Virus record (IMG/VR): IMGVR_UViG_3300033182_000487
Coordinates: 49,149 to 113,148 of that record
Length of the DNA stretch: 64,000 nucleotides
DNA from: a virus
Direction: 5' to 3' (one strand)
Part shown: piece by piece, positions 11,146 to 56,759 of the stretch
How positions within the stretch are numbered: position 1 is the stretch's first letter
Layout: the number at the start of each line of letters is the position of its first letter
Program-made: the position numbers and the translations under genes
Notes under the pieces: model-generated
The model's input: only the letters and a program-made list of their open reading frames with translations
Told to the model about the DNA's origin: nothing
The model's database searches: none

Positions 11146-11466
11146 ATGGAAGACACGAAGACCGTATCTGTCCGCCGGGTCGCGATGGCGAAGCGGCTTG
11201 CGGCGAAGTGGATCCGATCTCACGCAGAGCCCGAGTACCGTCTCACGGTCTACCGGGGGTCAGGTCGTGAGTCCCGGAATCTGCCCGGACTGCTGCGGTC
11301 GTTCCGTGACGGCAAGATCAAGATCGCCGCGACCGAGCCAGTCCGCGACATGGGCATCAAGGCGGCCTTCGACCACATCACTGTCTGGTCGAAGGACAGG
11401 GAGGGGCTCCAGCGCCTCTCTGATGCCCTCCAGAAGATGGGCTGCGAAACCACAGGGGTCTTCTGA
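11146..11466 (+). CDS. Hypothetical protein with RVA/RLAAKW tag
   Basis: GGAG RBS; follows class II motif. Confidence 0.65.
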   Translation: MEDTKTVSVRRVAMAKRLAAKWIRSHAEPEYRLTVYRGSGRESRNLPGLLRSFRDGKIKIAATEPVRDMGIKAAFDHITVWSKDREGLQRLSDALQKMGCETTGVF

Positions 11467-11894
11467 TGGCAGCGTCCCTCGCCCAGTCTGAGTTCGTCTA
11501 CAGGTCGGGCACGAGCCCGGACATCTACACGTTCACCATCGTTTCCGATTCCCAGGGGAACCTGTCGGTGCGGGACATCGAAGACCCCTATGGGTTCGTG
11601 ATCTCGCCGTACACCCAGATCCCGCAGAGCGTGACCGCCGACATCTCCTCTGCCATGTCAGCCGTGGAGACTATTTTGGCACTCACATCAGCCGTCAACG
11701 GCACCCTGACCTTCACCGCTGAGACATCGAAGTCCGTGACCTTCGCCGAGGCGTTCGCCGACACCTCGTACCGAGTCCAGACGACCTCCGATGTCTTCGC
11801 CCCCTTCCGCATCACAAACAAGACCGTCCTGGGCTTCACCATCCAGGCCGGAGCCACCATCACCGGGACCGTCGGGTACGACGTCTTCGTGTGA
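11466..11894 (+). CDS. Putative virion protein; C-terminal domain shared with 38354..39913
   Basis: SKSVTFAEAFADTSYRV...ITNKTVLGFTI resembles SETITFDIPAPDTNYTV...IRNKTATEFRI. Confidence 0.55.
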   Translation: MAASLAQSEFVYRSGTSPDIYTFTIVSDSQGNLSVRDIEDPYGFVISPYTQIPQSVTADISSAMSAVETILALTSAVNGTLTFTAETSKSVTFAEAFADTSYRVQTTSDVFAPFRITNKTVLGFTIQAGATITGTVGYDVFV

Positions 11895-11897
11895 TCA

Positions 11898-11941: not shown

Positions 11942-13870
11942 ATGACCACACTCCCCATCGAGCGTACTGCTTCGACCTTGCGCAAGGTCAAGTCCATCCT
12001 TCGTCGGTCGGGCCTTCTGGACAAGGTTGAACTTGGCGGACGAGGCAGCGATTGGAACGTCGAGGCTCCCGATGGGACGATCCAAGAGCAGGTTTCCGAC
12101 GCGCTCCGCAAAGCCGGGATCAACGTCGGCGGCTACCGCACCGGATACGGCGCATGGGTCTTGAGCGAGTCGTACCAGACCGACGACTACGACTTCAACA
12201 ACCCGGCGAGCCGCAGCCACTACGCCTCGGATCACCTGCCTGTCGAAACCCGCACCGCCGCGTCGTTCTTCGACATGTTCTTCAAGGAGAAGAACGTCCC
12301 GTACAAGGTCTTCGACGTGACGGACTCGCAGGGGATCACGCACAGCATCCCCAACGAGGTCGTGATCAACATGATCAAGCAGACCCGTGGCCGCGAGAAG
12401 GCGAAGATCGAGGAGACGCTTCGCATGATCGACTTCAAGAACGGGGATGTGAACCACTACCTCCAGCACCTCGCTCGCGGTCTGGCCGAGCAGTACAGCG
12501 GAACTCTCCGCTTCGCTTCCGAGCAGCAGGCCGAGAAGTTTGAAGCCGAGGCCGAAGCCGCCGAGGCACAGGCCGAAGCCGACCGCCAGAAGGCCGATGC
12601 CTCCCGCTTGAAGGCGGCGGGTCTTGGACCTGTCGCCCAGACCATCCTTGACCAGATGGGTGGCAATCGAGTTCTGGCGATGCTTGGGGTCAACCGCCTT
12701 GTTGATCTCCGCAACGGCATCGGGATCGGCTGGCCCAACCGCCAGCGGTCGAAGGGCAACTACGTCGAGATCATGCTCAACGGGAAAGACCTGTACGACA
12801 TGACCTTCTACAACCTCTCCATGCGGGGGAAGAAGAAGGTCAAGGAGTTCAAGGATCTCTACAACGACTCGCTGGCCGATACCTTTGAGGGTCAGACGGG
12901 GTGGTATCTCCGCATGGCGTCCGACAAGGCCGCTGCTGGTGGCCTCTACGGCTACACGAAGGGCACCCAGCGGGACGTGGAAGCGTCCATCCGCAAGGCC
13001 CAGCGCCGTGCCGCCAGCATCGCCAAGACCCTCTACGCGAAGGACGAGCGGAGCGTGGACTTCTTGAAGGCCCACGCGAAGCGGGCCAACAGCAAGACCG
13101 CTCGCCTGATCCTGGCTGCCATGAAGACCATCGGACCCCGCGTGGCGTCCGAGACGCTTCCGAGCGAGCGTCATGCCTCGATCTACCACGCCTCTGAGCA
13201 GGAGCAGTTGGAGTACGTCGTCGATGCTCTCCGTCTGGCGGGTGAGCAGGGACTCCGTGTGGACGGCCTCCCCCGCAAGGGTGCCCTGGCCGCTCAGAGC
13301 AAGGGCCTTGCCGACGCCGAGCGCGGCTACCTCTACATCACCCGGAAGGGTCGGAACGTCCGCATGGCTGCCGAGGAGAAGGTCGCTGGTGGCCTCTACG
13401 GCTACCCCACGAAGACCGCCCGTCTCGCACTGGTCGCTTGCTCCGACCTCCGCGCCTACGTCGGCGAGGTTGCCTACGGGCTGCACAGCCGCCGCACGGC
13501 CCGGTACGACCGGATCACCGGCTTCCTCAAGGAGCACGGCAAGACCGCGAAGTGCGCCTACTCCCGCATGATCCTCGACTGCTACCCCGACGCTCCGGTG
13601 TCGAAGCAGGCGAAGGAGGAGTACCCCTGGCCCGAGTGCATCGCTGACCAGGAGAAGCAGTACGGCAGCAAGGAGACCGCCGAGAAGGTCTGCGGCAAGA
13701 TCAAGGCTCAGTCGCAGGGCAAGAGCGCAGGGGCCAAGGACTATGGGATCATGGGGGGCAAGTTGGCCTCCAGCGAGATGCTCAAGAAGGCGTTCGTTCC
13801 TGACTCGGTGGACGGCTGGCTGGAGTGGGAGGACGGCTCCCGTACCGCTGCCACCCGACGCCGTGGTTGA
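11942..13870 (+). CDS. Multi-module (polyprotein-like) hypothetical protein
   Basis: Small domains separated by RTA/RFA/RMA/RVA/RHA/KVA/KQA linkers; two GGLYGY domains; start moved to the ATG with GGAG RBS. Confidence 0.75.
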   Translation: MTTLPIERTASTLRKVKSILRRSGLLDKVELGGRGSDWNVEAPDGTIQEQVSDALRKAGINVGGYRTGYGAWVLSESYQTDDYDFNNPASRSHYASDHLPVETRTAASFFDMFFKEKNVPYKVFDVTDSQGITHSIPNEVVINMIKQTRGREKAKIEETLRMIDFKNGDVNHYLQHLARGLAEQYSGTLRFASEQQAEKFEAEAEAAEAQAEADRQKADASRLKAAGLGPVAQTILDQMGGNRVLAMLGVNRLVDLRNGIGIGWPNRQRSKGNYVEIMLNGKDLYDMTFYNLSMRGKKKVKEFKDLYNDSLADTFEGQTGWYLRMASDKAAAGGLYGYTKGTQRDVEASIRKAQRRAASIAKTLYAKDERSVDFLKAHAKRANSKTARLILAAMKTIGPRVASETLPSERHASIYHASEQEQLEYVVDALRLAGEQGLRVDGLPRKGALAAQSKGLADAERGYLYITRKGRNVRMAAEEKVAGGLYGYPTKTARLALVACSDLRAYVGEVAYGLHSRRTARYDRITGFLKEHGKTAKCAYSRMILDCYPDAPVSKQAKEEYPWPECIADQEKQYGSKETAEKVCGKIKAQSQGKSAGAKDYGIMGGKLASSEMLKKAFVPDSVDGWLEWEDGSRTAATRRRG

Positions 13871-13959: not shown

Positions 13960-14790
13960 ATGAGCCAGCACCAGCGCGACAAGCAGGCGTACTTGAACGC
14001 CACACCCATGCAGCGGGAAGTGGTGCGTCGGCTCCTGTGCGACGTGCTGGCGTGTTTGAGAGCGCAGTATCTCTCGTACCAGACCTCGCACTGGCAGGTC
14101 GTCGGACAGTCCTTCTACGGCAACCACCTGCTGTTTGAGCGGCTGTACTCGTCCGTCCTGCTCCAGATCGACTCCCTCGCCGAGAAGTTGGTCGGCTACC
14201 TCGGGCGTGACGTCGTTGACCTCTCCGGCCAGTTGGAGAAGATCTGGGAGTACACCTCGGTGTGGACGCAGATCGACTGCCACCACAAGCGAGGCATCCG
14301 GTCAGAGCAGGACATCCAGGCCGCGCTCCAGCGTGCCTACGACGGGATCAAGCAGGCCAAGGCGATGACCCTGGGCCTCGACGACTGGATCATGGCCACG
14401 GCCAACATCCACGAGGAGAACGAGTACCTCCTCCAGCAGGCGCTGACCCCAGTGCCCGGACAGAAGCGGGCATCGACCGACGAGGGCTACTTCTACGACG
14501 CCCCCGACCACCACGTCGTCCTGGACTTCGCAAAGAGCCGCGCCATCACCAACGATGTGGATGTCGCCAAAGACGCTGCCGCCGAAGATCACCTCGACAT
14601 TCCCGAATCACAGGCTGTCACCGAAGCCGAGGAAGCCCCGCCTCTCCCGACGGAGATCGCGCAGGAGCCTGGTGGCGCATCCGTTTCCACGCTGAATCAG
14701 TACGTCATCACGTCGGAAGACCCCGTGGCTGAGAAGGCTGTCGCCATGAACAAGGCCCACATGGCCGCATGGCTCAAGGAGTTGACCTGA
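13960..14790 (+). CDS. Dps/ferritin-like protein with acidic C-terminal extension
   Basis: HWQVVGQSFYGNHLLFERLY...IDSLAEK Dps signature. Confidence 0.8.
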   Translation: MSQHQRDKQAYLNATPMQREVVRRLLCDVLACLRAQYLSYQTSHWQVVGQSFYGNHLLFERLYSSVLLQIDSLAEKLVGYLGRDVVDLSGQLEKIWEYTSVWTQIDCHHKRGIRSEQDIQAALQRAYDGIKQAKAMTLGLDDWIMATANIHEENEYLLQQALTPVPGQKRASTDEGYFYDAPDHHVVLDFAKSRAITNDVDVAKDAAAEDHLDIPESQAVTEAEEAPPLPTEIAQEPGGASVSTLNQYVITSEDPVAEKAVAMNKAHMAAWLKELT

Positions 14791-20152: not shown

Positions 20153-20180
20153 GGCCCGCTACCAGGCAAAGGAGCCCCCC

Positions 20181-44794: not shown

Positions 44795-47176
44795 ATGTCG
44801 TTTGGGCCCTCAGCACGAAGGGTAGCCCGCCGTAAGCAGGCGGACGCGGACCACGCCACCTCCATCGCTCTGATGAAGTGGCTGTCGAAGCAGACAAAGA
44901 GTCTGGGGATCGCGCAGCACGTCTACATCGTGGGCGGTGCGGTGCGGAACTTCGTGCTGGACCAGCCCATCAAAGACATCGACATGGTGGTGGACTCGCT
45001 CGCCCTGCGGGGCAACCGCGACTCCGAGTGGGTGGCACAGCGCCTCGCCCAGCGGATTCCCGGCTCCGCGATGCCGAAGATCCACACCTCCAACCTGGGG
45101 GTGTCCACCATCAAGATCACAGGCGACTGGCTGCTCGACGGCAACCAGATGAAAGGCAAGGACATCGACATCGCGAACGCCCGTGAGGAGGAGTACGCGG
45201 TGGACCCCGCGACGGGCGAGTACACCGGACACAAGCCCATCAAGGTGAGCCCGACCACGATGGAGATCGACGTCTCCCGCCGTGAGTTCACGTTCAACAC
45301 GCTCATGTGGTCGCTGATGTCGGTCGCCGACGGCCCCGACAAGGCTGAAATCATCGACATCACTGGCTGCGGTCTGCGCGACTTGAAGAACCGCGAGATG
45401 CGCTGCCCCAGCGATCCCGACGAGACGTTCGCGCAAGACCCCACCCGGATCATCCGCACCATCAAGTTCGCCTTCAAGTACGGCATGAAGTTGCCACCCG
45501 ACGTGAAGGCCGCAGCGAAGCGGCAGGCGAAAGGGCTCAAGCGCATCCCGTCGAAGGCGTGGACCGTGCTCCAGACCATCGTGTTCGACAACCCTCAGTA
45601 CAAGAAGGCCCTCGACGTCATGGCTGACCTCGGGGTCACGGACGTGCTGGCCGAGATGATGCAGTCGGACAAGCAGTTCCGCTCCACCCTGGGCAAGTAC
45701 TCCCAGGGCCGGGGGTTGGCCTACATGTTCGACCTGATGGACGTGGGCATTCCCGTTGACGAGCCCTTGAAGTTCCTCGACGCGGACCAGCGGAAGCGTC
45801 TCCGAGAGGTCACGACGGGCATGGACCGCGATGACGCGATGGCCTACCTGGAGGCGTTGAAGAACCCCGGCAAGGTCTACGACCGCAAGTTCATCCCCAC
45901 CCTTGCCAACAGCCTCGGCTACGGCGGCAAGCAGATGCGGAACTTCATGCAGACGGTCACCCCGCTTGGCCGGGAAGCCCTGCTGCGTGACCCCAGCCTC
46001 AAGGACAACCCGTCGGCACTGATGCGCGAGGTCGAGCAGGCTGCGAAGCGAGCCCTCCCTACTCGGGTGGCGATGCGGTGGGCCTCCGAGAACGAGCCTA
46101 CTGACCCTGGCCTGTGGGCGAAGGTGCAGGCCCTCGCCAAGGGTGAGCAGAAGTCCATGACCCACGACGGCAAGACCATCGAGGCTCCCAACGACGGTGC
46201 GGGCTTCAAGGTGTTCCCGAGCGCCTACGCCAACGGCTGGGCGAGCAAGACCTACGGTGATCTCGGCGGCGGCTGGAAGAAAAAGGCTTCCGCATCTCGC
46301 ATCGCTGATGCGTGGGGTCCGATGCTCCGTGAGGCACGCAGCCAGAACCCCTATGCCACTGATTTCGGGGGTAGTTGGACCATCAAGTTCGACGTTGGAC
46401 GGATGGAGCCTCTGCTCTGGACACCTTCTGGGTTCAAGGATTCCCGCAAACTGGACTACACGCGCTCGTCACGCAGTCCGAAGGACTTCCGTACACAGGC
46501 GGAAGCCAACCGTGAGATCCAGACAGAGGTGTTGGACTTCATCCGAGACTACAGGTCAGATCAAGCAGACCTGATTCGTGGGTGGGGTTCTCGTACCGCT
46601 CGCGGCAAGGCGAAGAAGGACGTGGGCCACGGCGGGCTGGACGAGTGGTTTAGCGGCCACGGCGGGGCCAAGGGGAAGGGCGAAGGTGCTACCTGGGGTG
46701 ACTGGGTGGCCATCTCCCCCGTGACGAAGACCCTCGACTCTGGGAAGAAGGTCGAGAAGGGCGACATCGTGGGCGACTGCGGCATCTCCGATGACCCCGA
46801 CTGGAAGGAGATCACGAAGGGCGGCAAGGATCCGCTCAAGTGTATGCCTCGCCAGAAGGCCCACGACATGCCGAAGGCCGAGCGCGCCGAGAAGGCGAAA
46901 GCGAAGCAAAGGGCCGAGAAGGCTGACTCCAACCGGGGCAAGAAGCCAACCATGACCCCGACCTTCCAGAAAGAGAAGGGCAAGAAGAAGGCGTCTTCAG
47001 ATTGGTACTACCCGTGGGATGTGGCGAGCGGCTGCATCTGGGGGTCGGGCGCGTTCAAGTCCGTTGAGCCTGTCGAGACCTGTGGCGTTGAGAAGTCAGC
47101 GACGGTGCAGCGCATCCAGATGAAGCGGGAAGCCTCCGCACGGCTCCGCGCTGCGTGGCGAGGCGACCGTGGCTGA
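44795..47176 (+). CDS. CCA-adding/poly(A) polymerase-family nucleotidyltransferase fused to extra modules
   Basis: VYIVGGAVRN, KDIDM, SRREFTFN, QDPTRIIR; then PSAYANGW and GLDEWF modules. Confidence 0.85.
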   Translation: MSFGPSARRVARRKQADADHATSIALMKWLSKQTKSLGIAQHVYIVGGAVRNFVLDQPIKDIDMVVDSLALRGNRDSEWVAQRLAQRIPGSAMPKIHTSNLGVSTIKITGDWLLDGNQMKGKDIDIANAREEEYAVDPATGEYTGHKPIKVSPTTMEIDVSRREFTFNTLMWSLMSVADGPDKAEIIDITGCGLRDLKNREMRCPSDPDETFAQDPTRIIRTIKFAFKYGMKLPPDVKAAAKRQAKGLKRIPSKAWTVLQTIVFDNPQYKKALDVMADLGVTDVLAEMMQSDKQFRSTLGKYSQGRGLAYMFDLMDVGIPVDEPLKFLDADQRKRLREVTTGMDRDDAMAYLEALKNPGKVYDRKFIPTLANSLGYGGKQMRNFMQTVTPLGREALLRDPSLKDNPSALMREVEQAAKRALPTRVAMRWASENEPTDPGLWAKVQALAKGEQKSMTHDGKTIEAPNDGAGFKVFPSAYANGWASKTYGDLGGGWKKKASASRIADAWGPMLREARSQNPYATDFGGSWTIKFDVGRMEPLLWTPSGFKDSRKLDYTRSSRSPKDFRTQAEANREIQTEVLDFIRDYRSDQADLIRGWGSRTARGKAKKDVGHGGLDEWFSGHGGAKGKGEGATWGDWVAISPVTKTLDSGKKVEKGDIVGDCGISDDPDWKEITKGGKDPLKCMPRQKAHDMPKAERAEKAKAKQRAEKADSNRGKKPTMTPTFQKEKGKKKASSDWYYPWDVASGCIWGSGAFKSVEPVETCGVEKSATVQRIQMKREASARLRAAWRGDRG

Positions 47177-50100
47177 CCCGAAGCGCCTGGCAACCCTCCA
47201 CAAGCAGGGGGGCATCTACAAGCCGATGTCGGAGATCACGCCCGGCACTCAGGACTTGCTCGATTCGCCGACCCCGGCGTGGCTGGACCGCGACTACCCC
47301 TACGTCGCCCCTCCCGGAGAGGAGCACACGCTCCAGGAACTCAACTACCTCGTCTCGCTGATCCCGCTCCGTGAGAAGTGGGGCCCCTTCATCAAGGCTG
47401 CCGACGAGGACGTGGCAGGTCTGTTCGTGACTCTGTGCTCCGAGTTGGGTGCTCCCTGTGATCCTGATGCGCTCCATGAGATGGCCGACGAGGCCGCCAT
47501 CCTGATCACGAAGTTGAAGTGGCTCTACAACAGGCCGCGCCCCTACCAGATCGCCGAGAAGCACCAGCGCCTTGAAGGACAGGGCAGCGTGTGGCGACCC
47601 GGCGATTTCCCCGTCATGGGCACCGCGTCCGCGCACTCCCCGGCGTACCCGAGCGGCCACACCATCCAGTCGTTCCTGTTCGCTTCCCGACTGAGCGAGA
47701 CGTCCCCGCAGCACCGCAAGGCGTTCATGGACCTCGCCGAGAAGGTGTCCTTCTCCCGAGCCGTCGGCGGCTACCACTGGCCGTCTGACCTCGCGTTCGG
47801 CAAGGACATCTTCCGCCACATCGTCATGCCCCTGATGCCCTCGGCGGTCCGTGTGGCAAAGACCTTCACGGTGAACAAAGGCGACCCCATCTGGTACGGC
47901 AAGTACCAGAACAAGCGTGGGATCATCGACGGATTCAGCACCAACGACAAGGGCGACACCCTCATCACCGTCGAGCAGGTGCCCAACGAGTCTGGGCGCA
48001 AGCAGCCGAAGGAGATGAAACTGTTCAAGGTGCGCCCCCGCAAGGTCGAGGAGAAGAAGGCCGGGGGATCACGGACGCTCTACTACGTCGGCAAGCGCCC
48101 GGCACAGCCGAAGCCGAAGCGCGCCGAGTGGCGTCAACGAGGCCAGGACACTCCCGACTGGGTGCGTCCGTGGCTCGACGCCCCTGTGTCGAAGGGTGTC
48201 TTCCTGACCTCCAACCCGTTCCTCGTCGCTCCGAAGCACGGTGTGTTCGGGCACGTCTACGCCTACGAGGTTCCCCAGTGGGTCATCAAGGAGGCCAAGG
48301 GCATCCACCGCAAGGACGGGGCCAGCGAGGTCTTGATCCCCGAGCCGCTGTGGGAGCATGTGAAGTTCAAGGGCAAGTCCATGAGCCAGGACGACTTCCT
48401 GGACCAGGTCTACGGCAGCGACGACGCCGCCTTCACCCGGTCGCGGGGGAACAGGTACAGGACAAAGGCGGACTGGGAGGCCAGCAGGATGGCGTCTGTC
48501 CCGAAGAAGTACGAGCACATCGACTTCAAGCCCCCGGAGGGCGTGGCAAACGCCGCCGCGAAGGGGCTGGAACTGCGCCAGAAGGCCAGTCCGTCGAACC
48601 GTGGTGGCCTGACCCCAGCCGAAGCCAGCAAGCAGGGCATCGGCTCCGGCGTCCAGCGAGCGGTGAACCTCAAGAACCGTGATCCTGTCTCGCCGAAGGT
48701 CATCAAGCAGATGAAGGGCTTCCTCTCGCGCTCCGAGAAGTCCAGCGAGATCAGTGCGGAGAACCGGGGAACACCGTGGAACGACAAGGGCTACGTCGCG
48801 TGGCTGTTGTGGGGCGGTGATCCCGCGAAGGCGTGGGTCGAGAAGGTCATCAAGCAGATGGACGCCGCCGACGAGAAGGAGAAGCAGTCGAAGCAGGCTG
48901 CGGTCCGTTCGGCTGCGTCGAAGGCCCTGTCCAAAAAGGAAGTCCCGAAGGCGGATGGGAAGGGCACCACGACCGTCTACGAGTACGGCCCCCGCCAGGT
49001 GGCCGAGCGCCACAGGGAGAAGGCCGTCCGCATCGAGGCCCTCCGCAAGAAGATGGCCGACCTGCGCCAGAAGGCTCGTGGTGATCTCACCGCGAGTGAC
49101 CCTGAGACCAGGCTCACCGCGTTGGCGGTGTGCCTGATGGACGAGACCTACGAGCGCGTGGGCAACGAGAAATCCGCAAAGGACGGGCACTACGGGGTCA
49201 CCAACTGGACGGCGGACCACATCACGCTGTCGGACAAGGCGGCGACCATCCGGTACACCGGGAAGTCCGGCGTCAAGCACGAGAAGAAGGTCACCAACGC
49301 CCGTGTGCTCTCGGCACTCCGCAAGGCCCTCAAGGGCAAGGGCAAGGGCGACAAGGTGCTCTGCGACGGGGACGAGTGCTCGATCCTCGCCAAGGACGTG
49401 AACGCCTACCTCAAGCCCTACGGGATCACGGCGAAGGACATCCGTGGGCTCCACGCCAACGAGGAGATGAAGCACCACCTCAAGGCCCAGCGCAAGGCGG
49501 GTCCGGCTGACCTCCCGCACTCGCGCAAGGAGAAGGACCAGATCCTCAAGGCCGAGTTCCAGGCTGCGCTTGATCTCGCTGCTGCCGCTGTGGGCCACGA
49601 GGCTTCCACACTACGCAGTCAATACCTCGTACCCAGTATGGAAGCGTCCTACACACATGACGGCACGGTGCTCGACCGGCTCGACAAGAAGGCCACCCTC
49701 TCCGACTCCGAGAAGGAGGACCGGGAGACCGAGCGCCTGGTCCGCCGGTCTCCGAAGAAGAAGCCGCCTCGTCGTGACAAGGAGCGGGGCCGGATCGAGG
49801 GCGTCGAGGATGACCCCGACCCCGACGAGAAGCAGGACCAGAAGGATCGGTCGAACAACTACAAGGATGCGGCTGCCCGGCTCGCCCTGCGGTATCTGAC
49901 CGCAGGTGCAGCGAAGTCGAAGCGCCGCCGGAACAGGCCCCCCTCGGAACGCGAACTCGCCCGACGGAAGCAGCAGTCCGACGCCGCGAAGGCAAAGAAC
50001 CCGAAGCGCAAGGCCCCGCCGAAACTCAAGGAGGCTCCCGCCCCGAGCGGTGACCGTGAGGAACGCAAAGTCGGAGACGTCTGGGAAGGCAAGGACGGCA

Positions 50101-51458
50101 AGTGGTCTGCGAAGGGCGACGACGGCGTGCAGCGTGGCTTTGCGTCCCAGGACGCCGCGAAGGCGTGGTTGTCGGGCGGTCCGAAGCCGGGCGAGTCCGA
50201 TGCCCCGGAGTCGTCGAAGCCCCCGAAGACGGAGGAGCAGCAGGCCGTAGCGAAGATCAACGCGATGGTCGAGAAGTTGACCGCTGAGTCGAGCGAGGTG
50301 CTGCACAACCTGGACACCCAGACCCTGGGTGCCGTGGAGGAGGCGCTGGGCGACATCGCCGCACGGGTCACCGATATGGCCCTCAAGGCATTCTCCGTCA
50401 AGCAGTTGGAGGAGCAGGCACGGTTCGCCGAGTCTGTGCTACGCCGGGATGGGGAGCCCCCTACCCCGGCTGAGATCGCCAATGCGCTGCTCACGCTCCG
50501 GGCTAAGGAAGTCCGCAACGACCCCTTGCTCCTGGACCCGAAGAACCCCATCAGGAACCTGCCAAAGGAGCCGCTGGACTTGAAGGGGGACGCCCACAAG
50601 AAGCACATGAGCCAGATGGGTGACGCCTCCGTGAGGGCCATGTACGAGTACAGGGAGATGCCGAAGGACGACCGTGACGCCCACCGCGAAGGTCTCCGCA
50701 AGCACATGGAGGAGTTGGAGAAGGAAGGCGCGACTGACACCGAGCAGTACCACATGACCCTGGCTCAGTTGCGAGGGCTCCAGGTGGCTTCTGCCATGGA
50801 GGACGGAGACCAGGCCGTTGGGATCAGCCCGACCTTCCAGGTCATGCTCAAGGCTGCCGAGTCACAGGGTCAGGACGTGCTCAAGCAGTTCGTCAAACTC
50901 AACCTCACAGGTGCTGCGGAAGGGGACGTCCCTGCACAGCAGCAGTTCCGGCAGGTGCTCCGAGACACCGATCCGCAAGCACTGGCGAGAATCCTCCCCG
51001 AGGATCACCCGGCATACGAGGCCATCCAGGCGCTCACCGGAAACCATCTGGAGAACAGCAAGCAGAAGGCGCTCTGGATGAAGCACATGGACTCCGAGTC
51101 CCAGGAGATGATCCAGACCCTCATGGAAGATCTGGTCATGGATGACCTCATGTTCACGGACATGGACCTGGTTCGTGGTGGCATGGAGGTCGGGGACATC
51201 AAGGGGAAGGGCAAGAAGAAGCGCATGGAGCGCAGACGCAAGTTGGAGGACAAGAGCACCTCCGTCATGGCCCAGGTGATGGCGAAGGCGAAGGAGAAGG
51301 GGAACAACACCCTCTACACGCTGTCCTCCGGTTACTTCGGCAAGAAGACCAACTCCGGTCAGAAGCGCCCCACCAGCGGCAAGCCCCCTTCCAGTGGCAA
51401 GAAGGCATCCCCCGATCCGCTTTACGCTTACGACTTTCAACCCTGGGGGGCCCTGTGA
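47169..51458 (+). CDS. Multi-domain protein: PAP2 phosphatase/haloperoxidase + small modules + type IB topoisomerase + C-terminal region
   Basis: KWLYNRPRP, YPSGH, SRAVGGYHWPSD; ERVGNE...HYG, GKSGV, TAKDIR, VGH...RSQY. Confidence 0.8.
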   Translation: MADPKRLATLHKQGGIYKPMSEITPGTQDLLDSPTPAWLDRDYPYVAPPGEEHTLQELNYLVSLIPLREKWGPFIKAADEDVAGLFVTLCSELGAPCDPDALHEMADEAAILITKLKWLYNRPRPYQIAEKHQRLEGQGSVWRPGDFPVMGTASAHSPAYPSGHTIQSFLFASRLSETSPQHRKAFMDLAEKVSFSRAVGGYHWPSDLAFGKDIFRHIVMPLMPSAVRVAKTFTVNKGDPIWYGKYQNKRGIIDGFSTNDKGDTLITVEQVPNESGRKQPKEMKLFKVRPRKVEEKKAGGSRTLYYVGKRPAQPKPKRAEWRQRGQDTPDWVRPWLDAPVSKGVFLTSNPFLVAPKHGVFGHVYAYEVPQWVIKEAKGIHRKDGASEVLIPEPLWEHVKFKGKSMSQDDFLDQVYGSDDAAFTRSRGNRYRTKADWEASRMASVPKKYEHIDFKPPEGVANAAAKGLELRQKASPSNRGGLTPAEASKQGIGSGVQRAVNLKNRDPVSPKVIKQMKGFLSRSEKSSEISAENRGTPWNDKGYVAWLLWGGDPAKAWVEKVIKQMDAADEKEKQSKQAAVRSAASKALSKKEVPKADGKGTTTVYEYGPRQVAERHREKAVRIEALRKKMADLRQKARGDLTASDPETRLTALAVCLMDETYERVGNEKSAKDGHYGVTNWTADHITLSDKAATIRYTGKSGVKHEKKVTNARVLSALRKALKGKGKGDKVLCDGDECSILAKDVNAYLKPYGITAKDIRGLHANEEMKHHLKAQRKAGPADLPHSRKEKDQILKAEFQAALDLAAAAVGHEASTLRSQYLVPSMEASYTHDGTVLDRLDKKATLSDSEKEDRETERLVRRSPKKKPPRRDKERGRIEGVEDDPDPDEKQDQKDRSNNYKDAAARLALRYLTAGAAKSKRRRNRPPSERELARRKQQSDAAKAKNPKRKAPPKLKEAPAPSGDREERKVGDVWEGKDGKWSAKGDDGVQRGFASQDAAKAWLSGGPKPGESDAPESSKPPKTEEQQAVAKINAMVEKLTAESSEVLHNLDTQTLGAVEEALGDIAARVTDMALKAFSVKQLEEQARFAESVLRRDGEPPTPAEIANALLTLRAKEVRNDPLLLDPKNPIRNLPKEPLDLKGDAHKKHMSQMGDASVRAMYEYREMPKDDRDAHREGLRKHMEELEKEGATDTEQYHMTLAQLRGLQVASAMEDGDQAVGISPTFQVMLKAAESQGQDVLKQFVKLNLTGAAEGDVPAQQQFRQVLRDTDPQALARILPEDHPAYEAIQALTGNHLENSKQKALWMKHMDSESQEMIQTLMEDLVMDDLMFTDMDLVRGGMEVGDIKGKGKKKRMERRRKLEDKSTSVMAQVMAKAKEKGNNTLYTLSSGYFGKKTNSGQKRPTSGKPPSSGKKASPDPLYAYDFQPWGAL

Positions 51459-51566: not shown

Positions 51567-52001
51567 ATGTCCAGACTGACCCGACGGGGAGCACGCAACC
51601 TGACTGCTACCCTCGACCGCATCGCTTCCACCGTGCAGGAGAACCCCGCTCTCCTCGGCATTGACCCCAAGATCGCAAAGGACTTCGCGTACCGCTGCGA
51701 CCTGATCTCGGACGCCGTTGAGCGTACCGCCGTCGCCAACTTCCCGAAGCAGGCCGACGAGAACAGCGCCATTCCCAGTGCTGGCGGTGACTACGAGGTC
51801 GCGAAGCCCGGCATCGAGAAGGAGATCGGCGCTGAGGTCAAGGGCCCCACCTACGAGGAAGACCCCTCGGACGGTGAGGACATCAAGGGCCACTTCACGC
51901 AGGCCGACTTCCACCAGTTGACCGAACTGGCTGAGAAGTTGAAGACTGCTGCCCAGAGCATCACGGTCGTCAACGATCACGGATTCAACCTCACCAAGTA
52001 G
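51567..52001 (+). CDS. Hypothetical head-region protein
   Basis: GGAG RBS; RIA/RTA/KQA/KTA motifs. Confidence 0.65.
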   Translation: MSRLTRRGARNLTATLDRIASTVQENPALLGIDPKIAKDFAYRCDLISDAVERTAVANFPKQADENSAIPSAGGDYEVAKPGIEKEIGAEVKGPTYEEDPSDGEDIKGHFTQADFHQLTELAEKLKTAAQSITVVNDHGFNLTK

Positions 52002-52009: not shown

Positions 52010-52585
52010 GTGCGTCGGTTTGCCGAAAACTACGTCAACTACCAAGAGCGGGCCACCGAGTACTCCGTCGGAGACGTCGTGGTGCCGTTTGGTTTGTGGG
52101 ATTCCCAGAGCGGTCGAGTCACGGCTGTCTGGCCCGCTATTGGTATGGTGGACGTAGAGTTCCCGTCCGGCAACGCACGCTTCCCTGTTGAGGAACTCCA
52201 GCGTATGGGCGCTGATGGGCAAGCAGAGCCCCCCAGAACGGACTCGGCTCCGGGCGGGGGAGGCTCTGTCTCTGTTCCCGGCGGCCCGTACCCGGACAAG
52301 AAGAAGTCCGCCAACCGTGTGGCACAGGCGTTCGTCAAGCAGTCCCTTTACTGGGCGCAGAAGGATCGCCAGTACCGCATGACCCGCCCCGAGGTCAGTG
52401 CAGGACATCCCAACTGCCCTCGCTGTGATCACGGCCCTCTGAGCCGGACGGTCTACAAGCGCCGGGACGGCACCTCCGACCACCTTCTCGGGTGCAAGGG
52501 CTGCATGTTCCTGATCAAGGACGCCGACATCGTGAACTTCGGACCTGTAAGCGCCGAGGAGATCGAGATCGAGGGGCAGGACTGA
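52010..52585 (+). CDS. Hypothetical protein (SH3-like + RVAQAF tag + Zn ribbon)
   Basis: AGGAGG RBS; CPRC...CKGC. Confidence 0.65.
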   Translation: MRRFAENYVNYQERATEYSVGDVVVPFGLWDSQSGRVTAVWPAIGMVDVEFPSGNARFPVEELQRMGADGQAEPPRTDSAPGGGGSVSVPGGPYPDKKKSANRVAQAFVKQSLYWAQKDRQYRMTRPEVSAGHPNCPRCDHGPLSRTVYKRRDGTSDHLLGCKGCMFLIKDADIVNFGPVSAEEIEIEGQD

Positions 52586-55287
52586 TGGCGTTCCTCAAGC
52601 GAGCCAGTGCAGTAGTCGTCCACCCCCGCATCTCAGGGCGCGGTTGGGGCGGCATCCGCAAGACCGCATCCTCGGGATCATCGCGAAACCTGACCGACCA
52701 GGCGCGAGAAATCCTCGGGACATCGCTGTCCTCCGACGACTACCTCGTGACCCACTGCACCATCGTGGCGTCTGTGGATACCGACAAGGCCCCCAACGTG
52801 AAGTTGGGCAACGTCAAGGTCGGCACCCAGACGGTCAACCGTCGGTGGGACGACTACCTGATCAAGCCTGAGTGCTCGCAGTTCGTGAACAACAACGGCG
52901 ACTCGTGGAGCCGTGCGGTGTTGAAGATGGCGTACCCGACCTTCATCGGGGCGCACAACTTCCGCGAGCACGTCCAGATCGAGGAGCAGTCGAAGGGCCG
53001 GATCATCGACGCTGTGGCGCGTGACATCGGCGACTCGCTCTATGTGGACATCCTCGTCGCCACGAACCGCAAGCACGCGGCGCTGGTGCAGGACATCGAA
53101 TCCGGGAAGATGGCAACCCTCTCCATGGGCTGCTTCCTGCCGGGGACCATGGTGTCCCTTGCCGATGGGACTCGGATCCCCATCGAGGACATCCAGCCCG
53201 GCGACATGGTTCTGACCCACAAGGGTCGTGCCCGCCCCGTCGTGAACCAACAGATCCGTCGTCGCCACTGGACCTTGCGGCATATCACCGCCGTCGGAGT
53301 CCCCGAAACCATCTCGGCCACGGACACACACCCGTTCTTCGTGTTTCGCGCCCCGGAGGTTTGCGCCTGCGGCTGCGGTGAGCGCCTTCCCGAAATCAAG
53401 AACCAGACCCTTCGTTCCATGTCCCGTCGGTTCAAGCGCGGCCATGACAAGCGGGTCTTCAATCCCATGACTACCTACTCGTTGGATGAGTGCCGTGAAC
53501 GCACGGATCGTCTTGCGAACATCATGTCGGATGTGGAGATGGAGGAGGTTCGAGCAGCCGAACTCAAGGTCGGTGACTTCCTCTGCTTCCCTCGTGCTCA
53601 GTTTGACGGGGAGATTCCCGCAGAAGGGGTCACTGAAGGCCGCGCTCGCCTTCTCGGGTACTACTTGGCCGAAGGCAGCCTTATCAAGTACAAGGGTGCG
53701 CCCACTGGAGTGGAGTTCTGCTTTTCCCTCGATGAGCAGGACACCTACTGCGCTGAGGTGGCAGACCTTCTTCGGACGGAGTTCCCCGGAAACGAGCCTC
53801 GCCTCCATACCCGAGAGGACAGGAATACCTGTACGGTGATTCTGTCTGGTGCGGACACCGCGCAGTGGTTCCTTGATCATGGTGGTGAGTATTCTCATCG
53901 CAAGAGACTCCACCCTGATGTGGTCCGCTGGCCTGTGTCCGTTCAGAAGGCTCTTGTTGGGGCATGGGTGAATGGTGACGGCACCCTGACCAAGAAGGGT
54001 GTGACGGAAGGGGTGACCACCTCTTACGATCTCGCATGTCAGATGCACCTGATCGCTTCTCGGTGCGGGGCCTTCGTGAACACCTATGCGACTGTCCGTG
54101 GTCGTAAGGTGGCCGTTCGTGAGGTCGTCAACGGCGGCGTGGTGGTTCGGGATGAGGCGACGGGGCGTTTCCCCGCGTTCACCCTTCGTATGGGTCAGAC
54201 GCAGGCGCAAGTGTTTGCGGGACATACCGACAAGGTTGTGTCTGACCCTCACTTCAAGTCTCAGGGGGTGCGGGTTACGGACGATGTGGTGATGTTCCCG
54301 ATCACAGCCATCGTAGATGAACCATACTTCGGCTTCGTCTACGACTTGGAAGTTGATGAGGACCACTCATACATCGTGGAAGGTGTTGCCGTACACAACT
54401 GCACCACCGACTTCACGACCTGTACGAAGTGCGGCCACTTCGCTGTGGACGAGACGCAACTGTGTGACCACATCAAGTACGCGAAACTCAACACCTTCAT
54501 GGACGACAGCGGCCAGAAGCGTGTGATCGCAGAACTCTGTGGGCACGAGACCTACCACGACAACCCGGACGCCCCCGGTGGGGTCAGGTTCATCGAGGCC
54601 AGTTGGGTCGCGGTTCCTGCGTTCCCCGGCGCGGTGATGCGGAACATCCTTGATCCCAGCCAGGCGACCGACGACCAGGTCCGCAAGGTGCTCGCCTCTC
54701 CCCCTGCTCAGTGGTCTGACCACGCCGTGCAGAAGGCTGCGTCGATGACGGCTCTCGCCTTCGACTTCGGGGGTGACGACGAGGAAGACGAGGCCCCCGC
54801 GAAGGACGAGACGCCGAAGCCTCCGTTCCAGGAGGTCGAGGACGCGGTGTACGAGGCCCTCAAGGTCCGGGTCAAGGAACGTCTGGAGCGTGATCTCGCC
54901 CAGAGGGCTATCGAGGAGTCGGAGCCTGCCGACGCCATGGGCCCCAACGACAACATCATGAAGGAAGCCGCGTCTCACCACATGGCTTCCGTCAACACGC
55001 TTGTACGGGTAGCGTCTTCCCCAGTCGCACTGGTGGATGGTGTGGCCGCGATTGATTCCGCACACGGGATCAAGGTGGCACGGCATCTCTACCGGGTGGC
55101 ACTGGAGGCGGGCATTCCCACCAATCACCCATCTCTTGACCGTTACCTGTTCGCCTGTAAGAAGGCCGCTGGTCGCGGACTGAGTCCTGCCGAAACTCGG
55201 GTTGTGATCCGGCTCGGCACCTTGCTGGCTCGTTGGGCCAGCGTCAACAACCCCAAACCCCACTATCCTAAGAGGAGACTGCCATGA
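52585..55287 (+). CDS. Putative prohead maturation protease with intein
   Basis: NNNGDSW, TFIGAHNFREH, KGRIIDAV, TLSMG|C, FIEASWVAVPAF; lies upstream of scaffold and capsid. Confidence 0.7.
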   Translation: MAFLKRASAVVVHPRISGRGWGGIRKTASSGSSRNLTDQAREILGTSLSSDDYLVTHCTIVASVDTDKAPNVKLGNVKVGTQTVNRRWDDYLIKPECSQFVNNNGDSWSRAVLKMAYPTFIGAHNFREHVQIEEQSKGRIIDAVARDIGDSLYVDILVATNRKHAALVQDIESGKMATLSMGCFLPGTMVSLADGTRIPIEDIQPGDMVLTHKGRARPVVNQQIRRRHWTLRHITAVGVPETISATDTHPFFVFRAPEVCACGCGERLPEIKNQTLRSMSRRFKRGHDKRVFNPMTTYSLDECRERTDRLANIMSDVEMEEVRAAELKVGDFLCFPRAQFDGEIPAEGVTEGRARLLGYYLAEGSLIKYKGAPTGVEFCFSLDEQDTYCAEVADLLRTEFPGNEPRLHTREDRNTCTVILSGADTAQWFLDHGGEYSHRKRLHPDVVRWPVSVQKALVGAWVNGDGTLTKKGVTEGVTTSYDLACQMHLIASRCGAFVNTYATVRGRKVAVREVVNGGVVVRDEATGRFPAFTLRMGQTQAQVFAGHTDKVVSDPHFKSQGVRVTDDVVMFPITAIVDEPYFGFVYDLEVDEDHSYIVEGVAVHNCTTDFTTCTKCGHFAVDETQLCDHIKYAKLNTFMDDSGQKRVIAELCGHETYHDNPDAPGGVRFIEASWVAVPAFPGAVMRNILDPSQATDDQVRKVLASPPAQWSDHAVQKAASMTALAFDFGGDDEEDEAPAKDETPKPPFQEVEDAVYEALKVRVKERLERDLAQRAIEESEPADAMGPNDNIMKEAASHHMASVNTLVRVASSPVALVDGVAAIDSAHGIKVARHLYRVALEAGIPTNHPSLDRYLFACKKAAGRGLSPAETRVVIRLGTLLARWASVNNPKPHYPKRRLP
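53131..54399 (+). mobile_element. Intein (423 aa) with LAGLIDADG homing endonuclease
   Basis: Starts CFLPGT; TDTHPF block B; LLGYYLAEGS and LVGAWVNGDG; ends VYDLEV...AVHN before Cys. Confidence 0.92.
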
Positions 55288-56759
55288 GCCGTCAACGAAT
55301 GACTTGGACAGACCGTGGGGTGTCTCGGCGCGCCTCCGAGCACCCTGCTACCCCCGACGAGGGACCGGCTTCCCCCGCCTACAAGGCCGAGCCCGGCCCC
55401 GACGCCTACAAGAGCGGAGACACCTCCGCGTGGGCTGAGGATCCCCATCCCGGCCCCTACGAGAACGGTGAGCACCCCGCCACGCCCGACGAGGGTCCGG
55501 CCAGCCCCGCCTACAAGGCTGCCGCCCTGGAACGCAAGGCTGCGAAGTGCATCCGTCTCGCCACCGCCATGCTCGGTGAGGACGCTGGTGTCGCTGCCAT
55601 CGAGAACCAGGCTCTCGCTCTGATGGACCTCCCCGACCGTTCGATCAAGGCCAGCCTTGCTCGCATCGCCGAGGACGCCGACGAGGCCATCGACGAGGAC
55701 GACGCCGCCGAGGCTGAGGAAGACCTCAAGGAGGAAGGCAAGAAGAAGGCTTCCCTCACCGACCGCATCGCTCGCCTTGAGCGTGTGCTCGTCAAGTTGG
55801 CTGAGTCCGAGGATCCCGAGGGAGACGACGACGATGACGACGGGTCCGAAGACCCCGAGGGGGATGACGACGACGACGGCAGCGAGGACATGAAGAAGAA
55901 GGCCGCCGACGACGAGGAGATGGACGAGGAAGACGAGTCCATGATGAAGAAGAAGTCGGCCCTGGAGCGCCGCATGGACCGCATCGAGCGCGTCCTGCAC
56001 CGTCTCGCTGGAGACGAGGGCAAGGGCGGCACCGAGGACAAGGCTGCTGAGACCATCCAGGAGGAGGTCGAGCACGCTGCCGAGGACAAGAAGGCTTACT
56101 GGCAGCCTGGACATCGCTCCGAGGGCGGCTGGGATCCCGGTCACATGGAGAGCATGGGCGACGACGAGGAAGCCATGCTTGATATGATGCTCGCGGAAGA
56201 AGGCATGGGCCATGACCACGAGGCCATGGGCGAGTACATGGATGACGAGGAGTCCATGCTTGAGAAGATGATGCTGGAGGAGATGCGTCACGAGGAGGGC
56301 ATGGACCAGAACGATCCCGCCCACTTTGAGTCGATGGGCCACGACCATGAGTCCATGGATGACGAGTCGATGGAAGCCGAGGTTGCCGTGATGGACCCCA
56401 TGGGTCTGGACGGCGACGAGATCGTGGAGGAGGATGACATGATGATCCTCGCTTCTCTGTTCGGCAAGGAAGCCGGTGACCTCAAGGACGAGGACAAGAA
56501 GGAGAAGGAAGACCACGAGAAGGGTGCCATCGCCGACGACAAGGACCACATCGAGAAGTTGGAGAAGGACGAAGACGAGGACGCCGAGGATCTGGCGAAG
56601 GATGAGGAGTCGAAGAAGAAGGCTGCTCTCCGTCCCCAGCCGAAGCGGGCCAGCACCGGGGCGAAGACCCTGGGCGGCGTGTCGAAGGAAGCGGCTTCCG
56701 AGGTCGGTGACCTCAGCAAGTTGTGGGAGTCGGCCCCCGACGTGAGCAAGTTCTTCTAA
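55284..56759 (+). CDS. Acidic scaffold-like protein
   Basis: D/E/M-rich with internal repeats; between protease and capsid genes. Confidence 0.65.
   Translation: MSRQRMTWTDRGVSRRASEHPATPDEGPASPAYKAEPGPDAYKSGDTSAWAEDPHPGPYENGEHPATPDEGPASPAYKAAALERKAAKCIRLATAMLGEDAGVAAIENQALALMDLPDRSIKASLARIAEDADEAIDEDDAAEAEEDLKEEGKKKASLTDRIARLERVLVKLAESEDPEGDDDDDDGSEDPEGDDDDDGSEDMKKKAADDEEMDEEDESMMKKKSALERRMDRIERVLHRLAGDEGKGGTEDKAAETIQEEVEHAAEDKKAYWQPGHRSEGGWDPGHMESMGDDEEAMLDMMLAEEGMGHDHEAMGEYMDDEESMLEKMMLEEMRHEEGMDQNDPAHFESMGHDHESMDDESMEAEVAVMDPMGLDGDEIVEEDDMMILASLFGKEAGDLKDEDKKEKEDHEKGAIADDKDHIEKLEKDEDEDAEDLAKDEESKKKAALRPQPKRASTGAKTLGGVSKEAASEVGDLSKLWESAPDVSKFF
55338..55520 (+). repeat. Duplicated EHPATPDEGPASPAYKA unit in scaffold
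   Basis: Two identical 17-aa copies with synonymous DNA differences. Confidence 0.8.
55805..55888 (+). repeat. Tandem 39-nt repeat (SEDPEGDDDDDDG x2)
   Basis: Visible in DNA and protein. Confidence 0.75.

Follow-up and report, generated by a model that had tools for sequence, protein, structure and literature searches.

The T4 head genes follow the order 20-67-68-21-22-23, which corresponds to portal, core proteins, protease, scaffold and capsid, and the gp21 protease acts on IPI-III, Alt, gp67/gp68 and gp22 at the motif Leu/Ile-x-Glu|, the bar marking the scissile bond. In phage P1, the antirestriction proteins of the Dar system are packaged into the capsid and processed during head assembly. 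The herpesvirus assemblin (MEROPS S21) processes itself and the scaffold at an Ala|Ser bond preceded by a hydrophobic P3 residue (Val/Leu), using two sites, the R- and M-sites, in one protein family. To our knowledge, the specificity of prohead proteases has been determined experimentally only for T4, phiKZ, 201phi2-1 and SPN3US, and all of these enzymes cut after Glu. In the jumbo phages, one prohead protease (phiKZ gp175, SPN3US gp245) cuts many head proteins, ejected ones included; long propeptides are cut several times at a three-residue motif with Ser favoured at P1', SPN3US cutting after A-x-E and phiKZ after S/A/G-x-E, and removal is confined almost entirely to N-terminal propeptides (PMC10052503, PMC5694885). 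Polyvalent proteins, as described by Iyer, Burroughs, Anand, de Souza and Aravind in 2017, are multi-domain products of late genes with variable architectures, encoded near the portal and terminase genes; they were predicted to be packaged and delivered, and built-in peptidase domains, assemblin-like at C-termini, were proposed for them (PMC5512222).

Here, we analyzed a window of 64,000 nt (positions 49,149-113,148) of record IMGVR_UViG_3300033182_000487, which comes from an uncultured huge phage. Its head genes (Table 1; proteins are named by their start coordinates) are arranged as in T4, namely portal, internal proteins, protease, scaffold and capsid, with TerL at 33028 and genes 39922-51458 placed between the portal (35915) and the protease (52585). 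Judging from the protein sequences, the motif [K/R]-x-Ala|Ser found in many of these products is probably the recognition site of the phage's own prohead protease. This idea has its models in T4, phiKZ/SPN3US and the polyvalent concept, the basic-x-Ala code being a variant of these. We infer that the motif is cut, that the prohead protease cuts it, that the substrates lie inside the capsid and that any product is injected.

The likeness to the T4 gp21 system extends from the protease fold and the gene order to short N-terminal leaders that bear the motif and are presumably removed, and to the motif in the scaffold and the protease themselves. Unlike in T4, the capsid protein of the window is apparently uncut, long multi-module proteins contain internal sites, and both an intein and a four-Cys insert are encoded within the protease gene. 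Neither L/I-x-E nor A/S/G-x-E describes the sites; with Ala in the P1 position and a basic Lys/Arg in P3 they point to a different specificity class, even if the enzyme works alike. Cleavage in phiKZ and SPN3US is experimentally proven, whereas the window phage is known from its sequence, and its candidate sites, with P1 Ala and a basic P3, lie between folded modules. The herpesvirus assemblin shares with the window protease its fold, the presumed Ala|Ser bond and the proposed processing of itself and the scaffold, yet the P3 residue of the window motif is Lys/Arg, and there are dozens of sites across many proteins. As in polyvalent proteins, late-gene architectures vary freely and include nucleotidyltransferase and peptidase domains: PAP2 phosphatase occurs with topoisomerase IB, and a nucleotidyltransferase, a Dps-like domain and a C39 peptidase each occur with further modules, in a late/virion neighbourhood that holds the portal and terminase genes. 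Unlike in the polyvalent scheme, the code would act in trans, being common to the scaffold, the portal and the stand-alone protease, and modules are inserted at the sites.

Table 1 Positions of the window features discussed in the text
Position	Strand	Feature	Details
11942..13870	+	642-aa bead-string protein	17 motif sites
13960..14790	+	Ferritin/Dps-like DNA-binding domain + C-terminal module	phrog_3636 E 4e-10, weak PF00210
30221..31105	+	C39-like cysteine peptidase domain + C-terminal part	PF13529 E 6e-11
35915..37618	+	Portal protein	phrog_16240 E 3e-33
39922..41160	+	Head-module protein	Conserved ~190-aa protein + ~230-aa insert (BLAST segments)
41157..42614	+	Fusion protein	N-terminal part 1-~265 (leader RTA|S10) + conserved ~200-aa core
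42611..44785	+	724-aa protein, fold unassigned	Widest occurrence among the motif-rich proteins; five [KR].AS sites
44795..47176	+	CCA-adding/poly(A)-polymerase-type nucleotidyltransferase (aa 43-303) + C-terminal modules	PF01743 E 4e-14; phrog_2244
47169..51458	+	1429-aa fusion: PAP2 phosphatase (aa 110-211), topoisomerase IB (aa 613-814), further parts	
51567..52001	+	144-aa protein directly upstream of protease	Leader site RIA|S18
52585..55287	+	Prohead (head-maturation) protease, 900 aa, intein-bearing	phrog_18299; motif sites KRA|S5, KTA|S26, KAA|S717, RVA|S808, RWA|S883
53131..54399	+	Intein in protease	Cys183..His-Asn605, Cys606 at +1; Hint/intein Pfam matches
55284..56759	+	Putative scaffold, 491 aa, 30% Asp+Glu	Composition; between protease and capsid genes
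57614..58486	+	Major capsid protein, HK97 type	phrog_2522 E 2e-54

Enrichment and placement of the motif

All K/R-x-A sites quoted in the initial annotation were found in the ORFs to which it had assigned them. In the set of proteins that it had picked with the motif already seen (7,157 aa), 36 instances of [KR]-x-A-S were counted where 6.4 would be expected, and 79 of the broad form [KR].A[SAG] where 26.3 would be; in the remaining genome proteins, [KR].AS was counted 30 times (18.1 expected). Ser, Ala and Gly had all been proposed at P1', and the numbers uphold Ser (5.1x), Ala (1.7x) and Gly (1.5x) being weak, which leaves [KR]-x-A-S as the sharp motif. It is directional: reversed SA.[KR] was not enriched in the same set (5 vs 6.4), nor, among window proteins, were versions with Ser or Gly at P1 or with shifted spacings. 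Val or Thr frequently occupies P2, and the flanks display no extended consensus, which fits a protease site and not a domain. A blind scan of all 8,000 a.bc patterns in 225 orthologues ranked K.AS first (296 vs 59) and R.AS second (248 vs 49). No description of the [KR]-x-A-S motif was found in the literature, and a search of INPHARED returned no near-identical phage DNA.

Within-protein shuffles revealed an excess of [KR].A[SAG] in the 11942 (17 vs 3.2), 39922 (5 vs 1.1), 41157 (7 vs 1.6) and 42611 proteins (11 vs 3.8), as well as in the protease (10 vs 2.4) and the putative scaffold (10 vs 1.9). Of the seven late ORFs named beforehand, two, 44795 (5 vs 3.2) and 47169 (7 vs 6.0), displayed no overall enrichment of the broad motif. 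The motif was not enriched in TerL, the capsid protein, the sheath and the helicase, and a control set (TerL, capsid protein, others) gave 1.0x; in the orthologue groups of the capsid protein and TerL, [KR].AS reached 0.97x and 0.41x. The capsid protein, which also has no N-terminal propeptide, served as an internal negative control. The comparison of late with replication proteins against shuffled controls, as suggested in the initial annotation, gave a positive enrichment, and the distribution of the motif is that of prohead-protease substrates: it is common to internal head proteins, the scaffold and both ends of the protease, and tail and replication proteins are not enriched. Portable tags, which contain R-L-A-[AS] themselves, contribute to the count; sites within this tag, and those in the sliding clamp and an ATPase among the replication proteins, are probably not cut.

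Domain borders and motif positions coincide, as had been supposed. In 58 windows of 25 aa at homology borders, 14 [KR].AS were found against 1.7 expected from a local shuffle and 30 [KR].A[SAG] against 6.9, the exact reverse SA.[KR] giving 3 against 1.7. A circular-shift test yielded p 0.0008 for the motif; since the reverse-type control [SAG]A.[KR] likewise lay near borders, this test is confounded by linker composition, and the border claim rests on the local shuffle. The first 45 aa contain [KR].AS in 15 of 106 proteins (3.1 expected), and the motif stands ~10-40 residues from many N-termini, those of the protease, putative scaffold and portal among them. When the 11942 protein was modelled with AF2, low-confidence linkers contained or adjoined 9 of its 17 sites as compared with ~35% by chance, a weak agreement, and some sites fall within confident helices.

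These data bear on the view that the motif is a functionless by-product, either of Ala/Ser/Lys/Arg-rich linker composition or of a DNA-level recombination scar. The linkers are indeed rich in these residues, and the reverse-type control shares their neighbourhood; however, the local shuffle separates the motif from its exact reverse, the 36 [KR].AS sites are 36 different 12-mers, and the same pattern takes the top rank in non-homologous proteins of phage Tunturi_5, whose portal is 36% identical to that of the window. The codons at the sites are diverse and of genome-typical usage, so the signal resides at the protein level. The by-product view is thus disfavoured, and we regard it as very improbable. 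A DNA-level repeat or recombination joint was ruled out by the unique 12-mers at all 36 sites and the genome-typical codons, and a composition artefact by within-protein, analytic and local-window shuffles together with reverse and offset motifs.

The protease and its presumed head substrates

The 52585 protein matched phrog_18299 ('head maturation protease') at E 3.5e-6, and an intein-free orthologue did so at E 1.4e-14; tblastn retrieved proteins of Tunturi_5 and BcepSaruman that are annotated as head-maturation proteases. No relevant Pfam family was found even at E<=1, S77 included, and sequence searches of the PDB with the single sequence or a profile gave nothing relevant. The gene stands beside head genes, being followed by those for the acidic protein (55284), 56990 and the capsid protein. 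The intein is inserted at the invariant S-M-G-C block, and ~30 orthologues of 449-514 aa are free of it. The fold was examined on an AF2 model of one such orthologue, in which pLDDT is mostly 75-95 over residues 40-250 and lower near 127-135. VIA-align superposed this model on T4 gp21 (5jbl) with Z 9.6 and rmsd 3.7 over 141 aligned residues, and on the HSV-1, HSV-2 and EBV proteases with Z 5.8, 5.2 and 4.5, respectively; Foldseek matches were weak (E 0.06), yet the top three were gp21. According to the model, the catalytic domain is of the T4 gp21/herpesvirus assemblin fold (MEROPS clan SH), and the earlier proposal of a spliced, assemblin-related protease is supported. Candidate residues for the His/Ser/His catalytic triad, in orthologue numbering, are His131 and Ser182, both invariant, and the nearly invariant His208; the intein is located two residues past Ser182.

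The protease itself carries the motif at conserved places. Most of the 22 orthologues in the alignment have R-[VT]-A-S ~25 aa from the N-terminus, another [KR]xAS precedes the C-terminal domain, and [KR].AS is enriched 5.1x in the orthologue group. The putative scaffold, for which no HMM match was obtained, has 10 motif sites including RRA|S15, KKA|S154 and KRA|S454. In the portal, KTA|S at residues 38-41 stands directly ahead of the conserved GGNFYSPELSTDF block. Among 30 N-termini of portal orthologues shown in alignment, most keep [KR]-x-A at the same position with S, M, T, N or F at P1', and the strict form [KR].A[SAG] is present within the first 80 aa in 20 of 53 unique N-termini. The sites in the scaffold, at the protease N-terminus and near the portal N-terminus are present as first described. 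If these sites are cut, the protease would trim its own N-terminal ~26 residues and detach its own C-terminal domain inside the assembling prohead, the acidic scaffold would be fragmented, and the portal would lose ~40 N-terminal residues, the proposed site tolerating residues other than Ser at P1'.

The same observations can be set against the reading of [KR]-x-A-S as a short linear motif that is never cleaved, that is, a basophilic Ser kinase site or a docking peptide for the scaffold, the capsid interior or the portal. The general basophilic kinase pattern, Arg/Lys at -3 from Ser, is matched by [KR]-x-x-S (textbook), and the exposed linkers and termini in which the motif is found are the usual home of such motifs. 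Nevertheless, Ala at -1 is nearly obligatory (5.1x as compared with <=1.4x for any other residue) and Thr does not substitute for Ser (1.6x, the same as background residues), portal orthologues retain [KR]-x-A while the Ser position varies, and substrates of prohead proteases are classically recognized by just such a crowding of the motif in the scaffold and at the ends of the protease itself. Moreover, no protein-kinase (Pkinase) domain was found within the 113-kb fragment, itself only ~25% of the genome. An uncleaved motif is, in our opinion, unlikely.

Cleavage by another peptidase, which would not require the prohead, was considered as well: the C39-like enzyme (30221-31105), one encoded in the three quarters of the genome that lack sequence, or an enzyme of the host. 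The C39-like peptidase is a product of the window and has a junction site itself, and built-in peptidases that process such proteins have been predicted (PMC5512222). The sites of known C39 peptidases are, however, Gly-Gly and not Ala|Ser (textbook), and among 78 related loci homologues of the C39 gene occur in 8, whereas the protease is found in 42 and the motif pattern is widespread. The motif also tracks the prohead-protease lineage into Tunturi_5 and, in a weaker form, into Bxz1-like phages, and herpesvirus proteases of the assemblin fold cut Ala|Ser. We judge cleavage by a different enzyme improbable, and the prohead protease remains the preferred reader of the motif.

Motif-bearing multi-domain proteins

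For several proteins, whole-length orthologue alignments were replaced by segment analysis because only single modules are common to the orthologues. The insert of the 39922 protein is bracketed by KQA|S128 and RVA|S360 and split by RMA|S236. In most relatives, a motif linker connects the N-domain with the C-domain (R-V-A|S-LGDL...), and three relatives (L004, L006, L015) have other modules at this linker, each with the motif on both sides; [KR].AS is enriched 6.5x in the group. In the 41157 fusion, a cluster of sites (RRA|S261, RVA|A286, RYA|S290, KTA|G296, RTA|G302) precedes the core, and an N-terminal DGHHR stretch is suspected by us to be ParB-like. Its orthologues are stand-alone proteins of 200-240 aa with the leader RVAxR[YF] followed by [KR]-T-A|G-EVRFIKD, so that [KR]-T-A|G abuts the conserved core across the family (3.8x for [KR].AS). 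The 42611 protein keeps KVA|S285 in 20 of 26 orthologues, the group having 139 [KR].AS against 20.5 expected (6.8x), and the ESM Atlas gave no lead for it. The 51567 group reached 7.8x.

The modules of the 11942 protein span ~107-192, 205-326, 327-402 and 477-560 (a duplicated GGLYGY module), and the median distance from a homology border to a site is 2 aa. Single modules are shared with 2,612 representatives in proteins of 128-1858 aa, and the best 150 of these 2,612 contain 608 [KR].AS against 110 expected. In the 13960 protein, the domains are joined at KRA|S169, where homology ends cluster (160-175), and in the 30221 protein the parts are joined at RVA|S176 (homology ends 170-175). The borders of the 44795 protein carry RWA|S428, KKA|S496 and KKA|S731 (border clusters 400-435, 500-515, 725-735). 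Those of the 47169 protein, which matched PF01569 (E 4e-12) and PF01028 (E 4e-22), carry RMA|S440, KQA|A575/RSA|A580 and KDA|A899 (clusters 440, 570-585, 895-915). Several homology borders in these two proteins lack the motif, including those at 205-230, 830-845 and 1025 of 47169, and both may be counted as motif-bearing through a few border sites only.

In the proposed mechanism, the protease would separate the modules of multi-domain ('polyvalent') proteins, encoded from portal to protease and elsewhere, and internal head proteins would lose short peptides at their leader or tail ends (RVAxR[YF], 'tag A'). The cleavable linkers seem to be the points at which such multi-domain proteins acquire new modules, and relatives with extra modules in motif-bearing linkers fit the expandable platform envisaged at the outset. 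As a whole, the interpretation given there is partly supported. More tentatively, and with some doubt on our side, huge phages of the phage G/Tunturi_5-related clade may possess a modular cargo platform composed of portable address peptides and a universal [K/R]-x-Ala|Ser code read by an assemblin-fold enzyme with herpesvirus-like Ala|Ser chemistry. Enzymes inserted into linkers would be loaded, freed and injected, and these phages would gain virion-delivered functions mainly through gene fusion at cut sites. Such cargo would comprise topoisomerase IB, the CCA-type nucleotidyltransferase, PAP2 phosphatase, the Dps-like protein and peptidases. If well supported in this large uncultured clade, the basic-x-Ala|Ser code would reveal a phage enzyme that prefers the same Ala|Ser bond as the herpesvirus proteases akin to it in structure, would offer linker insertion as a concrete growth mechanism for 'polyvalent' cargo proteins, and would make virion-internal, probably ejected proteins predictable from sequence alone in hundreds of metagenomic genomes.

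The signal extends to other phages. In the phage G head module only weak traces were found, the motif being present at the portal and protease N-termini only and lacking from the scaffold candidate, and Bxz1-like phages, whose protease is homologous, have the weaker form [KR].AA. In Tunturi_5, a cultured distant relative, K.AS tops the blind scan (24 vs 4.4), which makes the question directly testable. There, the motif is concentrated in gp328 ('DNA ejection protein'), gp332 (scaffold position), the DarB-like gp350 and gp348, all four without homology to window proteins, and the tail proteins are almost motif-free, the sheath having a single site. The window yielded no DarB homologue; the DarB-like protein of Tunturi_5 is motif-rich (5 vs 0.9) and, by analogy with the P1 Dar system, fits a packaged and processed cargo.

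Source record and gene order

One IMG/VR virus record of 113,148 bp ends with the 64-kb window; CheckV puts the completeness of the record at ~25%, corresponding to a full phage genome of roughly 450 kb. The GC content of the window is ~63%, no tRNAs were found within it, and no close phage was found in INPHARED. On the basis of the portal, the closest named phages are an uncultured one of 485 kb (66% identity), Tunturi_5, a cultured jumbo phage (36%), and Bacillus phage G (26%). When IMG/VR was scanned with the portal, 78 related loci of 46-96% identity were recovered, the contigs reaching 450 kb in length. Codon statistics gave 106 genes. From portal through internal proteins, protease and scaffold to capsid, the window follows the order of T4 genes 20-67-68-21-22-23. 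The ORF that follows the capsid gene, with its low GC3, is probably a mobile insertion. Both ends of the sheath are homologous to the 1204-aa Tunturi_5 sheath, and its large middle region had no match. The topoisomerase IB of the 47169 fusion is of the eukaryote/poxvirus type; since poxvirus virions contain a packaged topoisomerase IB, a packaged phage enzyme is an idea worth testing.

Features of the record. Single numbers are window start positions; the last column gives [KR].A[SAG] sites observed vs expected from within-protein shuffles, unless marked
Feature	Position	Remarks	Sites
Late-region protein	11942		17 vs 3.2
SNF2-type helicase	14769
Tag A	18499-18822
LR[KR]ILA[SE]EG[LI]L peptide	20151-20618
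Endolysin	20683
Tail sheath	22531-27699	1722 aa
Tag A	29733-30179
C39-like peptidase	30221
TerL	33028
Portal	35915
LR[KR]ILA[SE]EG[LI]L peptide	37663-38097
Unknown type	39922		5 vs 1.1
Unknown type	41157-42614	RVAxR[YF] copies	7 vs 1.6
Unknown type	42611		11 vs 3.8
CCA/poly(A)-type nucleotidyltransferase	44795		5 vs 3.2
PAP2 phosphatase + topoisomerase IB fusion	47169-51458	1429 aa, late protein	7 vs 6.0
Prohead protease with intein	52585		10 vs 2.4
Intein	53131-54399	423 aa
Acidic putative scaffold	55284	30% Asp+Glu	10 vs 1.9
Major capsid protein	57614	phrog_2522, E 2e-54
ORF directly 3' of capsid gene	58645-60639	LAGLIDADG endonuclease, HTH, methyltransferase-like region
Protein upstream of window		878 aa	13 vs 4.4
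Small protein	genome 4512-5354 (-)		[KR].AS 3 vs 0.27
Small protein	genome 22111-22533 (-)	both sites in first 20 residues	[KR].AS 2 vs 0.12
LR[KR]ILA[SE]EG[LI]L peptide	genome 25093-25821
Tag A, three copies	genome 36262-38898 (L002:16262-18898)

The basic-x-Ala-Ser motif in the window and its relatives

The initial annotation had proposed that unrelated domains of late-region ORFs are joined at [K/R]-x-A|[S/A/G] sites. Compared with within-protein shuffles, [KR].A[SAG] was in strong excess in the 11942, 39922, 41157 and 42611 proteins, the protease, the putative scaffold and the 878-aa upstream protein; the portal has one site only, and no excess was found in the helicase, sheath or TerL. 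Pooled, the proteins named in that annotation (7,157 aa, chosen after the motif had been seen) contain 36 [KR].AS sites vs 6.4 expected (z 11.7), and the remaining genome 30 vs 18.1. No enrichment was seen for the reverse pattern SA.[KR] (5 vs 6.4), for Ser or Gly in place of Ala at P1, or for the shifted spacings [KR]A[SAG] and [KR]..A[SAG]. The motif observation was borne out. Among the ORFs originally listed, 11942, 39922 and 41157 showed the excess; 44795 and 47169, two large enzyme fusions, had none overall and contribute a few border sites only.

When all 8,000 a.bc patterns were scored in 225 orthologous sequences from related loci, K.AS (296 vs 59) ranked first and R.AS (248 vs 49) second by a wide margin. 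At P1 only Ala was preferred (5.1x); at P1' the proposed Ser/Ala/Gly choice narrowed to Ser (5.1x), vs 1.7x for Ala and 1.5x for Gly, making the motif sharper than proposed, [KR]-x-A-S. A control set (TerL, capsid protein and others) gave 1.0x. Flanking positions are nearly without information, with a mild P2 preference for Val/Thr. Codon choice at motif sites is varied and typical of the genome, which places the selection at the level of the peptide. Single modules of the 11942 protein are shared by 2,612 proteins of 128-1858 aa (phmmer, 1.8 billion representatives), the best 150 of which hold 608 [KR].AS vs 110 expected (reverse motif, 0.8x).

Tunturi_5 and the window have in common the portal, protease, capsid protein, sheath and TerL, and no counterpart of the motif-rich proteins was found in Tunturi_5. 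As an independent replicate, the 29 CDS surrounding the Tunturi_5 protease were scanned blind, and K.AS was still the top pattern (24 vs 4.4), concentrated in gp328 (a 'DNA ejection protein' by annotation), gp332 (scaffold position), gp348 and gp350 (DarB-like); the sheath has one site, and none occurs in the tail fibres, the terminator or the remaining tail proteins. In the Bxz1-like mycobacteriophage Catera, whose protease is homologous to that of the window, the giant proteins of the head module have a [KR].AA excess that is weaker. Phage G showed motif traces only; its multi-omics paper lists no cleavage sites, and the Tunturi 5 publication includes no proteomics. Among Bxz1-like mycobacteriophages, the homologous domain of the protease makes up the N-terminus of a 1369-aa protein (Catera gp94; L085, 43341-47450), a fusion of the protease with a long polypeptide that bears the motif.

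The two small proteins with [KR].AS excess outside the window are possible additional substrates. A portable peptide, tag A (…LIRLA[AS]TLPxGSxERKxIL…), inflates the motif counts because its own sequence contains an R-L-A-[AS] match, at which cleavage may or may not occur. Another recurrent N-terminal peptide (…LR[KR]ILA[SE]EG[LI]L…) begins several otherwise unrelated small proteins.

Motif position in modular proteins

According to BLAST segments against related loci, what the motif-rich proteins have in common with their relatives is limited to modules. In 25-aa windows around 58 homology borders, [KR].AS occurred 14 times vs 1.7 by local shuffle, [KR].A[SAG] 30 vs 6.9 and the reverse motif 3 vs 1.7, in agreement with the domain-border placement first proposed. 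Significance was also reached in a circular-shift test, in which linker composition is a confounder. In the 11942 protein, the median border-to-site distance is 2 aa, and only 9 of the 17 sites lie in or beside low-confidence linkers of the AF2 model. The first 45 residues carry [KR].AS in 15 of the 106 proteins (3.1 expected), including the protease, scaffold, portal, 41157, 51567 and 11942; two replication proteins counted here (clamp and ATPase) are likely chance matches. In most of the inspected N-termini of portal orthologues, [KR]-x-A is kept at the aligned position and P1' varies.

Most relatives encode the 39922 family as a ~190-aa protein consisting of an N-domain, a linker with 1-3 motif copies and a C-domain that begins immediately after R-V-A|S; in the window, L004, L006 and L015, 1-3 unrelated modules, each bracketed by motifs, are inserted in the linker. 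The 41157 family, mostly 200-240 aa, has a conserved core starting directly after [KR]-T-A|G, preceded by an RVAxR[YF]-bearing leader. This peptide occurs once more at the extreme C-terminus, where a further [KR]xA|S precedes it. The window version is extended by a fused N-terminal part of ~265 aa ahead of the core. A [KR]xA|[SG] site separates each RVAxR[YF] copy from the core (also, e.g., in L006:9068-9748, L017:1599-2207 and L019:3025-3669), an arrangement that would resemble a removable address tag.

The protease and a putative cleavage code

In most of 22 aligned protease orthologues, R-[VT]-A-S occurs ~25 residues from the N-terminus, and a gapped stretch of variable sequence comes next; a second [KR]xAS lies ahead of the C-terminal domain. 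Profile searches matched PHROG 18299 (E 1e-14 for an intein-free orthologue) and no Pfam family. An AF2 model of an orthologue (mean pLDDT 70, catalytic domain higher) resembled T4 gp21 (Z 9.6) and the HSV-1 and HSV-2 proteases (Z 5.8 and 5.2). Herpesvirus assemblin cleaves an Ala|Ser bond, as Welch et al. reportedly described in a 1991 paper cited in PMC5512222.

The best-supported reading, which we consider probable, is that [KR]-x-A-S would be a cleavage code; that the enzymes are packaged and injected is plausible. In T4 and phiKZ/SPN3US, prohead proteases are established to process many head and ejection proteins, the latter with an A-x-E| motif and mostly removal of N-terminal propeptides (PMC10052503, PMC5694885). 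Iyer et al. 2017 (PMC5512222) used computational analysis to describe 'polyvalent' phage proteins with several domains and predicted their packaging and processing. In contrast to A-x-E|, the specificity read here would be basic-x-Ala|Ser; unlike in the known prohead-protease systems and polyvalent proteins, the sites lie between folded modules, and there is evidence of linkers as insertion points.

The window intein, with a homing-endonuclease-sized insert, extends from Cys183 to Asn605, with Cys606 at +1, within the invariant S-M-G-C block of the protease. Its start coincides with the first of four cysteines (C185, C192, C195 and C206, orthologue numbering) that belong to a conserved, zinc-ribbon-like insertion. 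Intein-free orthologues measure 449-514 aa; most relatives have no protease intein, and long protease forms occur in L018 and L073.
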